A stretch of 10,872 bases of DNA from IMG/VR virus record IMGVR_UViG_2609459844_000005, positions 1-10,872 of that record. One strand, written 5' to 3'. Below are positions 6,001 to 9,000 of this stretch, in pieces. The position numbers were made by a program. Numbering within the stretch: the first letter of the stretch is position 1; every line of letters starts with the position of its first letter. Origin of the DNA: a virus. Lineage: Duplodnaviria > Heunggongvirae > Uroviricota > Caudoviricetes.

Positions 6001-9000
6001 ATTAAATCCTGCCAGTGGCCACACGGCGATTATCATCACAGCGAAACCGTTATTCACCGTTATGGTACCGGCGCAATGGTGTTGTGCTGGCACTGCGACA
6101 ACCAGCTGCGTGACCAGACATCCGAATCACTCGGGCAACTTGCTCATCAAAACCTGTCAGCATGGATGATTGACGTCATCGGTCACGCAATAAGCGGTAC
6201 GCAGGAGCGTGAATTATCTCTGGCTGAATTATCCTGGTGGGCGGTCCGCAATCAGGTGGCGGACGCGCTACCGGAAGCGGTATTACGTCGTTCGCTGGGG
6301 TTGCGTGCGGAAAAAATCCGCTCAATGTACCGTGAAAGCGACATCGTACCGGGAGAGCAGACCGCCACCAGCATACTGAAGCAGCGCACAAAAAATCTTG
6401 CGCCGCTGCCTCACGCCCACCAGCAAACCCCGCCACAGGAAAAGACGGTGGTCAGCATTGCCGTTGATCCCGAGTCACCGGCTCAGTATCTCCAGCGCCA
6501 GAAATCACAACGGGAAGAGATGCCTGTATACACGCGCTGGGTAAAAACGCAGAAATGCATGACGTGTGGCAATCAGGCAGATGATCCGCATCACATCATT
6601 GGTCATGGACTGGGAGGGATGGGAACAAAGGCTGATGATTTGTTTGTTATTCCGCTGTGCCGTAAATGCCATAGCGAACTACACGCCGGGGTAAAAGATT
6701 TTGAAGAAAAACACGGCAGCCAGCTGTTGTTGCTGATTCGTTTTTTAATGCACGCGAGAAATTCGGGTGTTCTGAAGTGGAAAGCATAAATGACTGAACG
6801 CATAGAATTTGTTTTGCCTTACCCGCCAACGGTGAACACTTACTGGCGTCGTCGTGGCAGCACATATTTTATCTCGGAGGAGGGAAAGCGTTATCGCCGG
6901 GCTGTGGCGCTTATTGTTCGCCAGCAGCGGCTGAAATTAAGCCTGTCCGGAAGGCTGGCGATAAAGGTGATTGCAGAGCCACCGGATAAGCGTCGTCGCG
7001 ACCTGGACAATATCCTGAAAGCACCGCTGGATGCGCTGACGCATGCGGGAGTGTTAATGGACGATGAGCAGTTTGATGAAATCAATATCGTTCGTGGTCA
7101 GCCAGTATCTGGTGGACGTCTGGGGGTGAAAATTTACCCCATAATGCATGAAGAGCAGGTCAAAAAATGAAACTGGAAGATTTACCGAAATACTACTCCC
7201 CAAAATCCCCTGGCCTGACCGATGCATCGGCCTCAACGTCAAAAGATGCGCTGAGTATCACTGATGTGATGGCCGCGCAGGGCATGACTCAGAATCGGGC
7301 TGAGATGGGTTTTTCTGCGTTCCTGGGGAAAATGGGCATCAGTATGAATGACAGGGCGCGGGCAACAGAATTACTGGCAGAGTATGCACTCAGTCGGTGC
7401 GATCGTGTGGCGGCGTTGAGAAAACTTCCGGCAGAAATAAAACCGGTAGTGATGCGCATTATGGCTTCGTACGCTTTTGAGGATTATGCCCGCAGCGCAG
7501 CGAGTAAAAAGCAGTGCCCTTGTTGCTATGGGGAAAAATTTATTGAAAGCGTAGTTTTTACAAACAAGGTCCAGTATCCGGATGGTAAGCCGCCGGTATG
7601 GGCAAAGTGTACGAAAGGTGTGTATCCTTCTTACTGGGAAGAATGGAAAAAAGTCAGGGAGGTGGTAAAAGTTGCCTGTCCGGAGTGTGGCGGAAAGGGT
7701 GAGGTTTCCACCGCCTGTAAGGATTGCCGTGGGCGTGGTGTCGCCATTCATCGTGAAGAGTCGGTAAAACGTGGTATGCCTGTTATCAGAGACTGCCAGC
7801 GTTGTGGTGGTCGTGGCTGTGAAAGACTACCATCAACGGAGGCATTTAATGCCATACGCAAAGTGACGAGTGCTATCACGCTTGATACGTGGAAAAAATC
7901 AGTGAAACGCTTTTACGATACGTTGGTGGTTCGGTTTGACATTGAAGAGGCATGGGCGGAGCGGCAGTTAAAGAGGGTAACGCGATAGTGTTGTTGATTT
8001 TTCCCGAATTTGTGGTAAATTTGCCCTAACGATGGGCGTTTTATGCCTGACGTTAGAAGATTTTTTACACCCCGCCGCCTGGCGGGTTTTTTATGACTGA
8101 AATCGCGTCAGTACAGTAAACGCGCTGGTGGCGGTGAATACCTGTCTTTCAGCTTGCTGGCTTTTTCGACAAGAGTTATTGGTGTGTCACGTTAACCGGA
8201 AAAGGGAAAAAGACATGCTAAAACAGCAGGATATGACAGAAACCGCCAGAGTGGTGTTTAATGAATTAAGCGTTACCGAACCGGCGACAGTCGGGGAGAT
8301 AGCGCAGAATACTTACCTTTCACGCGAACGCTGCCAGTTAATACTGACCCAGCTGGTTATGGCGGGTCTGGCAGACTATCAGTTCGGTTGTTACAGACGC
8401 CTTCCGCAGTGAAGGCTTTTTTATTTGTGGTAAATGGGCGGCTGGTGGGTGTTAGGGGCACCCACCAGCCATCTGCTCATGCGTTGGGTTCACAAGCAAA
8501 CCTCAGGCCCACTGCTTTGCGCAAAAGCAGAATGAGCCTATCAGAGACAGGCTTAATGATCCATGCTTAATACTGTAAAAATATCCAGTTGTGAGTTAAT
8601 CAACGCCGACTGCCTGGAATTTATCCGGTCGTTACCCGAAAATTCTGTTGACCTGATAGTCACGGACCCGCCGTACTTTAAAGTGAAGCCTGAGGGCTGG
8701 GATAACCAGTGGAAGGGCGACGATGATTACCTGAAGTGGCTGGACCAGTGTCTGGCGCAGTTCTGGCGGGGGCTGAAACCTGCCGGAAGTCTTTACCTGT
8801 TCTGTGGTCATCGCCTGGCATCTGATATCGAAATCATGATGCGTGAACGCTTCAGTGTGCTGAACCATATTATCTGGGCGAAGCCGTCCGGACGCTGGAA
8901 CGGATGCAACAAGGAAAGCCTGCGGGCGTATTTCCCCGCCACAGAGCGCATTCTGTTCGCGGAACATTATCAGGGGCCGTATCGTCCGAAAGATGCCGGG

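Follow-up and report, generated by a model that had tools for sequence, protein, structure and literature searches.

The window, a 10,872-nt stretch of DNA from the IMG/VR virus record IMGVR_UViG_2609459844_000005, is a 10.9-kb segment of a lambdoid prophage that includes its Q-dependent late region. Downstream of the Q antiterminator gene lie a small open reading frame (ORF), the intrinsic terminator T1, an orphan DNA methyltransferase gene and a group of tRNA genes, and a GC-rich hairpin sits inside the 150-nt gap between the small ORF and the methyltransferase ORF, 92 nt ahead of the methyltransferase ATG (8563). This gene order places the hairpin in the leader of a moron gene within the Q-dependent late operon. 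Comparison of related loci indicates that the hairpin forms one helix, P2, of a Y-shaped structured RNA element of ~100 nt that is conserved, unannotated and travels with the methyltransferase family. We regard the element as a candidate new RNA family, of a functional kind that is already known.

The arms of the hairpin, GGCTGGTGGGTG (8440-8451) and CACCCACCAGCC (8459-8470), are complementary at 12 of 12 positions and enclose the 7-nt loop TTAGGGG, exactly as the original prediction had described them. That prediction also called the stem very stable, and this too was borne out. Nine of the 12 pairs are G-C, as in the G+C-rich hairpin of an intrinsic terminator, and the hairpin folded alone reaches -26.5 kcal/mol as plus-strand RNA and -24.5 kcal/mol as minus-strand RNA. 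A perfect 12-bp inverted repeat with a loop of 3-10 nt occurs once in the window and in none of 300 dinucleotide-preserving shuffles (arms of 10 bp are present in 4% of such shuffles), and the stem is therefore genuine and non-random. No U-tract begins within 0-2 nt of the stem on the plus strand, where the stem is followed by ATCTGCTCATGCG / AUCUGCUCAUG, and a terminator scan of the window did not flag the hairpin, in agreement with the earlier statement that it is not a standard plus-strand terminator. On the minus strand, P2 is followed by GCCCA and then by UUU, so that the U-run abuts P1 and not P2.

The exactness of the repeat is peculiar to one allele. In relatives, P2 usually consists of 6 bp, a 1x2 internal loop, 5 bp and the loop UUGUAG, and the perfect stem of the window arose by loss of one loop nucleotide, which let a U pair with an A. 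By this comparison, the conserved feature is not the perfect 12-bp stem or the second of the two Chi octamers within it; both belong to a derived allele of P2 in E. coli. The original prediction had noticed neither the Chi octamer in each arm nor the larger conserved structure around the hairpin.

That structure has a three-way junction, in which P1 is the closing helix and P2 and P3 are the other two arms; on the minus strand, hairpin P4 precedes the junction (Table 1). P3 is an unbroken 10-bp helix with three G.U pairs when read on the minus strand, and has C.A mismatches at those three positions on the plus strand. The minus-strand RNA of the window from 8530 to 8428 folds into exactly P4, P1, P3 and P2, at -49.8 kcal/mol. 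Terminator T1 ends ~10 nt ahead of the element; its position is conserved in relatives, and in the N15 and phiKO2 records it is the annotated terminator that follows the late promoter.

Table 1. Coordinates of the structured element, its signals and the surrounding genes and features in the window
Feature	Position	Strand	Details
P1 strand	8435-8439	-	plus strand TGGGC; pairs with 8507-8511
P1 partner strand	8507-8511	-	plus strand GCCCA
P1 outer pair	8434/8512		A.C on plus strand, G.U on minus strand
P2	8440-8470	-	12-bp stem, 7-nt loop; 3'-proximal stem-loop P2' in the minus-strand model
P3	8472-8500	-	8472-8481 pairs with 8491-8500
P4 hairpin	8512-8530	-	CTGCTTT GCGCA AAAGCAG; 5'-terminal hairpin in the minus-strand model
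P5, possible hairpin	8533-8555	+	8533-8539 pairs with 8549-8555; just upstream of methyltransferase start
Extended -10-like island	8535-8543	-	TGATAGGCT (TGnTAnnnT)
U-run UUU after P1	8432-8434	-	candidate 3' end; plus strand is the AAA of conserved GAAAATGGGC
Chi octamer, left arm	8441-8448	+	GCTGGTGG
Second Chi octamer, right arm	8462-8469	-	GCTGGTGG
Chi octamers, all, plus strand	164, 1980, 5901, 5959, 8124, 8441	+	
Chi octamers, all, minus strand	6365, 6417, 8462	-	
Integrase	1-1119	-	
823-aa ORF	1419-3890	-	C-terminal Rv2179c-like 3'-5' exoribonuclease domain, E=1e-67; adjoins integrase
DicB ORF	4171-4569	-	
sok antitoxin RNA	4962-5137	+	RF01794, 120 bits; next to DicB ORF
DUF968 gene, then RusA			between the sok/hok module and Q
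P27-type Q antiterminator	7167-7988		
Intrinsic terminator-like hairpin	8071-8086	+	downstream of Q
Small ORF, 65 aa	8215-8412	+	phrog_331; TrmB-like winged helix (wHTH) annotated in relatives
Intrinsic terminator T1	8399-8422	+	GCCTTC..GAAGGC then TTTTTT (terminator-like hairpin 8399-8416); overlaps small-ORF stop codon
N6_N4 DNA methyltransferase ORF (orphan)	8563-9612	+	Pfam PF01555, E=2e-42
Three tRNA genes (CAT, Arg-TCG, Arg-TCT)	9662-9911	+	ileZ-argN-argO-like set of Stx phages
STnc100	9989-10179	+	139 bits

A search with the methyltransferase protein against one genome per species returned 79 loci. The hairpin was found upstream of the methyltransferase in Escherichia, Kosakonia, Mixta, Trabulsiella, Enterobacter and Klebsiella, and likewise in the methyltransferase leaders of Citrobacter, Kluyvera, Buttiauxella, Erwinia, Providencia and Morganella. 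The entire ~130-nt leader is conserved and the arms covary; in Providencia they read GACTGTAAAGGTG and CACCCTTACAGTC, and Chi is absent. A covariance model built from a hand-drawn structure of the element scored 40 of the 79 loci above 96 bits, every one of them directly upstream of the methyltransferase. Deeper relatives, found by tblastn of the methyltransferase against phage genomes, also carry the element: N15, phiKO2, PY54 and four further N15-like phages, the Vibrio phages VHML, MAR and Valp1, Aeromonas phiARM81ld, Hafnia yong2 and a Providencia phage. In N15, phiKO2, PY54, VHML, Valp1 and phiARM81ld the same P2 and P3 helices are built from wholly different sequences, with P2 arms such as GCTGCAGCATG/CATGCCACAGC in phiKO2, GCGGGACGAG/CTCATCCCGC in N15 and CCTGCCCC/GGGGCAGG in VHML. 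A pattern scan with the P1-3'/P4 segment added 54 further viral loci, and in all 54 the methyltransferase lies downstream within 400 nt. The number of enterobacterial genera with the element exceeds 15, and beyond them it is found in N15-like phages, in VHML, and in Vibrio and Aeromonas phages. The original prediction had proposed, as a check, to look in other prophages for this hairpin ahead of their methyltransferase genes, and the outcome was strikingly positive. Within E. coli, a 191-nt query (8380-8570) that spans the element matches 2,884 of 5,426 complete genomes. The block with the element and the methyltransferase also occurs ahead of tRNA-stx in phiP27 and many phages of the Stx2a, Stx2c, Stx2d and Stx2k types, so that the element of Stx2-converting phages immediately precedes a methyltransferase-tRNA-stx block.

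The gene context is constant: the element lies between Q or a late promoter and the lysis genes, and its immediate downstream neighbor is always the methyltransferase gene or a Com-like gene that precedes the methyltransferase. In N15 (L269 1276-1364) and phiKO2 (L271 1273-1362) a late promoter and a rho-independent terminator are annotated immediately upstream of the element, and therefore the element and the methyltransferase open the late operon in these N15-like phage-plasmids. In phiKO2, a putative partition site is also found just upstream. A Com-like zinc-finger gene, annotated as a translational regulator, separates element and methyltransferase in phiARM81ld (L268 1202-1544) and Valp1 (L276 915-1165). 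The small upstream ORF is not constant: E. coli and Photorhabdus have a winged helix-turn-helix (wHTH) gene at this position, Kosakonia has a zinc-ribbon ORF, and an obligate pairing of the element with an upstream wHTH gene, acting as a C-protein or Com-like regulator, was rejected since Kosakonia and others differ upstream. In Photorhabdus and Xenorhabdus (L223-L265) the element is reduced to a P2-like hairpin that follows GGUGAAAUG, ~60-110 nt before the methyltransferase start.

Truncated copies were also found, extending over 8432-8452 (the 5' strand of P1 and the left arm only) or over 8432-8486 (up to the P3 loop). They occur in L001, L004 (about 2550-2575), L002, L005 and L006, beside unrelated right-hand modules, namely an IraM-like region and, ahead of tRNA-stx2k, an HTH protein. 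These copies mark replacements of modules, with the joints falling within the element. A role of the element as a mosaic junction or linker was considered and rejected, as the remnants are truncated copies and do not show recombination to be the role of the hairpin.

Searches against Rfam 15 returned no gathering-level match in 8350-8620 on either strand, and none in the Kosakonia and phiKO2 copies. Membership in the P26, SprD, Streptomyces-metK or STnc390 families was dismissed, the matches being sub-threshold and inconsistent. Searches of the literature on phiP27, N15, Pas small RNAs (sRNAs), EcOnc and anti-sRNAs found no description of the element.

Covariation was first scored with a hand-drawn structure (P1-P5) on a MAFFT alignment of 37 distinct leaders. 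In this independent alignment 92.7% of cells were paired, compared to 33-45% in slid controls, and nine pairs showed double changes, compared to 3.9 in shuffles. The RNAalifold consensus on the first MAFFT alignment recovered only a partial structure, and for this reason the hand-drawn structure and a covariance-model realignment were needed. The realignment, of 48 sequences, was built with the covariance model and is hence fitted to the structure model, so that its figures lean towards the structure: 92.3% of cells were paired, compared to 34-46% in slid controls. Double changes were seen at 30 of 35 pairs, compared to 9-14 pairs in slid controls and 12.4 ± 2.1 in shuffles (none of 500 as high), where the shuffle counts, like the Wilcoxon p-value, overstate independence because the sequences are phylogenetically related.

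Among the 48 sequences, P2 shows compensatory changes at 10 of its 11 pairs, with 97.1% of cells paired, and P1 is 100% paired, with a compensatory change from G-C to A-U in Mixta (L195); in phiARM81ld, P1 is formed by GUGGC/GCCAC. One pair of P3 alternates between C-G, A-U and U-A, and another between U-A and C-G. P5 is 82.9% paired in the 48-sequence alignment and is not conserved in VHML. The diverged sequences thus keep their base pairs through compensatory substitutions, which is the general mark of a conserved structured RNA. Taken together, conservation, covariation and linkage to the methyltransferase show the hairpin to be one helix of a larger element. The original prediction is in this sense supported in part, since the stem is real and is not a stand-alone element.

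Because Watson-Crick covariation cannot separate the two strands, the choice between them rests on wobble pairs, an A.C mismatch on the plus strand being a G.U pair on the minus strand. In the alignment, which was fitted to the plus-strand model, P1-P3 contain 42 A.C cells in 16 columns compared to 18 G.U cells in 6 columns. P3 alone has 31 A.C cells and 6 G.U cells, and P4 has 17 and 2. At the outer pair of P1, 39 sequences have A.C, 7 have A-U and 2 have G-C, which on the minus strand becomes a series of G.U, A-U and G-C. In every lineage inspected, P3 is a continuous 9-10-bp helix on the minus strand and is interrupted on the plus strand. A strand call from the wobble pairs of P2 alone was abandoned: the first E. 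coli comparisons had pointed to the plus strand, and wider sampling reversed the balance of the core.

Folding was consistent with this balance. When the P1-to-P1 core of 47 distinct sequences was folded, the minus strand had the lower minimum free energy (MFE) in 40, with a mean difference of -3.7 kcal/mol and an advantage of 7-11 kcal/mol in all N15-like phages; the exceptions are the E. coli types L003 and phiP27, Hafnia, and the enterobacterial loci L201, L202, L219 and L222. The minus-strand MFE structure was the Y-shaped fold in 13 of 13 structures inspected. For the window, the minus-strand fold has z = -5.2 and its MFE structure makes up 33% of the ensemble, compared to z = -4.2 and 5% for the plus-strand fold. 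As is expected of an antisense sRNA, the structure is therefore more stable or better conserved on the antisense strand, the picture for P2 alone being mixed. The original prediction had placed the hairpin in the 5' untranslated region of the methyltransferase gene. The hairpin does sit in that leader, but most of the strand-sensitive evidence favors an antisense RNA.

The minus strand also carries gene-like signals on either side of the fold, which resemble consensus patterns but do not prove a gene. A TG.TA.GCT island is at least 90-100% conserved over 47 sequences while its flanks vary; the form found in the window, running from 8543 to 8535, recurs in VHML, and Aeromonas phiARM81ld has TGATAAGCT. 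The island fits the pattern of an extended -10 element, with TG at -15/-14, T at -12, A at -11 and T at -7. It lies 6-7 nt before the foot of P4, and a transcript initiated from it would consequently begin with a 5' hairpin. The island is degenerate in the Photorhabdus and Xenorhabdus loci (TGACTGGCT). At the other end, P1 is followed on the minus strand by a U-run whose length is 2 (4 sequences), 3 (26), 4 (15) or 5 (2; n = 47), so that 43 of the 47 have a run of 3-5 U; the window has 3.

Our favored explanation, in which we place even confidence, is that the element encodes an antisense small RNA, transcribed from the minus strand and acting in cis on the leader of the late transcript. According to this model, an RNA of ~97 nt, from ~8528 to ~8432, would start ~7 nt past the extended -10-like motif, open with the P4 hairpin, fold into the P1/P3/P2 junction and stop at the U-run 8434-8432. 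It would be fully complementary to the leader of the late transcript between T1 and the methyltransferase. The mirror-image stem-loops of the two RNAs could nucleate pairing with read-through late transcripts and lead to a long duplex, which would be cut by RNase III, or else methyltransferase expression would be blocked. Convergent transcription from a promoter located at the methyltransferase start might add interference with incoming polymerases. Until Q-driven late transcription overwhelms the RNA, expression of the methyltransferase would be kept off, and possibly also that of the tRNA, stx and lysis genes further downstream. The strict linkage to the methyltransferase fits a role in cis better than a free trans-acting sRNA, and a cis-antisense pair would explain why both strands fold well and why the wobble evidence is not unanimous.

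A more specific proposal, that the element represents a new family of phage antisense RNAs which gates the first moron of the late operon, an orphan adenine methyltransferase, from its own extended -10 promoter, which would overlap the methyltransferase start region, and with a U-run end, we put forward tentatively. Such a family would range over about half of complete E. coli genomes, N15-like phages, VHML-like phages and Aeromonas phages. As the element lies between pR' and tRNA-stx in phages of the phiP27, Stx2a, Stx2c, Stx2d and Stx2k types, the RNA could affect the expression of Shiga toxin and lysis genes.

Several observations, in addition to the two limits on the covariation figures given above, weigh against an antisense RNA. 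The wobble pairs of P2 are mixed (11 A.C cells and 12 G.U cells), and plus-strand G.U pairs are kept by the common E. coli alleles CACTCACCAGCC and CACCTGCCAGCC and by the Photorhabdus and Xenorhabdus hairpins. P5 is the sole helix to favor the plus strand, with 44 G.U cells and 8 A.C cells; it falls outside the predicted transcript, which is coherent with the minus-strand model. As a promoter, the hexamer TAGGCT is weak (3 of 6 matches), a conserved -35 element is lacking, the N15-type phages do not have the TG of the extended -10, and a two-hexamer promoter scan of the window found nothing. The U-run is short (3 U in the window and 2 in phiP27) and follows a branched structure and not a simple hairpin. 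The plus strand is the one known to be transcribed, within the late operon, while minus-strand transcription is a prediction of the model. Adjacency to the methyltransferase, finally, would be expected equally of an element of the 5' untranslated region.

The last two points lead to the main rival, a serious one even though we think it rather unlikely: the element would be a plus-strand cis-regulatory leader of the methyltransferase gene, which controls translation or mRNA stability in the Q-dependent late transcript. The element has the same orientation as the methyltransferase start codon, its end is never more than ~30 nt from that codon, its plus strand belongs to the late operon and also folds well (z = -4.2, and z = -3.3 for 191 nt), and the E. 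coli P2 alleles and P5 carry plus-strand G.U pairs. Com-like translational regulator genes stand beside homologous methyltransferases in Aeromonas and Vibrio phages, which echoes com-mom of Mu; the window itself is without a com gene. Against this reading, the core helices P1, P3 and P4 contain mostly A.C mismatches on the plus strand, the plus-strand MFE structure is variable and weaker in 40 of 47 sequences, and pairing within P5 leaves the conserved AGCCTATCA island unexplained in VHML or N15.

A plus-strand leader might act by several routes. In one, AUGGGC (8434-8439) could pair with GCUCAU (8475-8480) and compete with P1 and P3; in another, the weak UGAUC-AUG initiation region could be occluded by P5 or by a GAUCAC-like sequence of P3. 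The methyltransferase start is without a canonical Shine-Dalgarno sequence (8555-8565, plus strand), and the motif UGAUC(Y)AUG at that start is invariant in enterobacterial lambdoid copies and missing from N15-like copies. UGAUC includes a GATC Dam site and is complementary to GAUCA in the 3' tail of 16S rRNA. A long-range anti-Shine-Dalgarno pairing between GGUCA of P3 and the UGAUC before the AUG was rejected, because it shows no covariation and the window has GUUCA.

The third route would be a translated mini-ORF, MGGWWVL*, that melts P1 and P2. A mini-ORF begins at AUG 8435 with GUG(A/G), which resembles a weak Shine-Dalgarno sequence, ahead of it, and runs for 33 codons in the window (8435-8536, plus strand). 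Forms with tandem Trp codons and a stop codon in the P2 loop are found in 20 enterobacterial loci (MGGWWVL*), in Photorhabdus (MDGWWS*) and in some Xenorhabdus (M(D/N)GWWIE*), and favor a leader on the plus strand. The mini-ORF is, however, not conserved in Providencia, the N15-like phages or the E. coli types, and for the same reason a trpL-like attenuation via the recurrent MGGWWVL* was rejected. Chi has these tandem Trp codons, UGG UGG, at its core.

We also considered that the hairpin might be due to Chi, with an inverted Chi pair that attenuates RecBCD from both directions and makes a recombination hotspot or module junction, and find this highly improbable. RecBCD recognizes any GCTGGTGG met from the 3' side, and both octamers of the hairpin should act as DNA signals. 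The exact octamer is present in both arms, and the window contains 9 Chi octamers, where shuffles predict 0.28. E. coli lineages show hardly any variation in the left-arm Chi block AAATGGGCGGCTGGTGGGTGTT, in contrast to the right arm, and homology breakpoints with alternative left- or right-hand modules lie at 8432, 8452 and 8486. It is pairing, nevertheless, and not Chi that is conserved. The left-arm Chi is present in most Enterobacteriaceae copies, but Chi-less helices are kept by compensatory change in Providencia, N15, phiKO2, PY54, VHML, Valp1 and the GGCTGGAGGGTG or GGCTGGCGGGTG variants, several Enterobacteriaceae copies likewise keep the helix after loss of Chi, and once these fully compensated helices had turned up, Chi was rejected as the reason for the hairpin. 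The E. coli-type right arm occurs as the perfect CACCCACCAGCC in ~50 copies, as CACCTGCCAGCC in 54 and as CACTCACCAGCC in 32, so that both Chi sites are found in ~50 of ~170 E. coli-type copies (~30%), and the second Chi exists only because the stem of that allele is perfect. Counting from cos, the site in phiP27 is preceded by another Chi in the correct orientation, and Chi does not explain P1, P3 or P4. Since many relatives keep the helix without Chi, Chi is not the conserved function; it is most readily understood as something that the P2 sequence brings with it or, at most, is put to secondarily. Elsewhere in the window, the DUF968 gene contains two plus-strand Chi octamers (5901 and 5959) followed by two on the minus strand (6365 and 6417), and the plus-strand Chi at 8124 is conserved in relatives.

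A plus-strand terminator, attenuator or pause hairpin ahead of the methyltransferase gene is less probable still. Several Xenorhabdus P2-like hairpins do look like terminators, because a plus-strand U-run follows them (GCCGG..CCGGC TTTTCG, and GGCGGGTA..TACCTGCC TTTTAT), and they have plus-strand G.U pairs; multiple terminators are moreover typical of Q-controlled late leaders. The plus-strand U-tract after P2 is nevertheless absent from the window and from all long-type copies, the canonical terminator T1 is already present 20 nt upstream of the hairpin, and the covarying P1 and P3 would be superfluous for a terminator. We found nothing in support of a transcriptional pause or attenuator, nor of the protein-binding site that the original prediction had also suggested.

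Such a site, at which a dimer of either the upstream winged-helix protein or the methyltransferase would bind the inverted repeat as its DNA operator, ranks below the terminator in our estimate. Some methyltransferases autoregulate via palindromic operators, and the hairpin is a 12-bp inverted repeat with a 7-bp spacer beside a small wHTH gene. But covariation of an RNA-like kind is seen in the long-range P1 (5-6 bp, ~70 nt apart) and in the asymmetric P3 and P4, the arms change completely between phages with similar methyltransferases, the small upstream gene is not conserved, and most copies have an asymmetric internal loop.

Least probable of all is an RNA like put of phage HK022, which acts on RNA polymerase for read-through: the put RNAs are ~70 nt with two stem-loops (PMC9378689), and P2 and P3 are likewise adjacent stem-loops, one nucleotide apart (P2-A-P3) and ~62 nt in total, in a phage operon leader, but the element differs, in a comparison made by description and not by sequence, in its place behind the terminators of a Q-dependent operon, whereas put directly follows an early promoter, in its additional closing helix P1, and in strand evidence that favors the other strand.

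The antisense RNA we favor would have its closest counterparts among known phage systems. P22 sar against ant, lambda OOP against cII and pairs of the hok/sok type are cis-encoded antisense RNAs. By analogy, the element would likewise give a small structured RNA opposite the 5' part or leader of a phage gene, with stem-loops on both strands, a promoter within the leader or start of the target and an expected formation of duplex. It has no sequence or structural homology to sar, OOP or hok-sok and no Rfam match, and the predicted RNA differs from them in its ~97 nt, its three-way junction, its short U-run and its target, the leader of a late-operon methyltransferase.

The moron region downstream of pR' in lambdoid prophages, including those of EHEC, is already known to carry antisense or convergent sRNA genes, AsxR, AgvB and EcOnc (Tree et al. 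2014, PMC4104026). Like the element, these lie within the Q-dependent late region of E. coli prophages, and some are antisense to the late or stx transcript (PMC4104026). They are 51-60 nt long, are located 3' of moron coding sequences and share a common 3' module (PMC4104026), whereas the element is 5' of the methyltransferase moron, longer, branched, and found far beyond Escherichia.

The likeness to com-mom of Mu is one of context only and consists in a DNA-modification gene of a late operon with an upstream RNA structure, and in the Com-like genes between element and methyltransferase in phiARM81ld and Valp1, such genes being confined to the Aeromonas and Vibrio relatives. In contrast to Mu, the upstream ORF of the window belongs to phrog_331, is wHTH-like and has no zinc finger of a com gene, and the hairpin, ending 92 nt before the ATG, sequesters neither the start codon nor the ribosome-binding site. 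In phiARM81ld and Valp1, moreover, the element precedes com and is apparently not the target site of com. With E. coli Chi the hairpin has in common the exact octamer 5'-GCTGGTGG-3', but Chi is a DNA signal that needs no hairpin. Among Rfam families, the terminal hairpin of the Pseudomonas sRNA P26 (RF00630), AUGGCuGGUGgCU..GcCACCgGCC, resembles P2 on the minus strand. The match reaches 24.2 bits compared to a gathering threshold of 36, the first P26 helix is not formed, and the Kosakonia and phiKO2 copies give no match; this likeness is a chance resemblance of one GC-rich stem.

Further features of the window are listed in Table 1. The 823-aa ORF next to the integrase gene has no Pfam match over its N-terminal two thirds, and the sok RNA implies a toxin-antitoxin module of the hok/sok type. 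Similarity to phages with different Q genes starts at 8071/8072. STnc100, found beyond the tRNA genes, has been related to the PasD sRNAs by a 2026 preprint.

Provided that the element truly is a regulatory RNA, whichever strand it is read from, it would be a widespread and so far unannotated part of the late operons of temperate phages, and it is a concrete and testable candidate for Rfam. It also illustrates that a conspicuous palindrome with two Chi sites can be a by-product of an RNA helix. As a regulatory RNA of either strand, the element would add an extra post-transcriptional layer to the expression of late genes, of the orphan methyltransferase and possibly of toxin and lysis genes.

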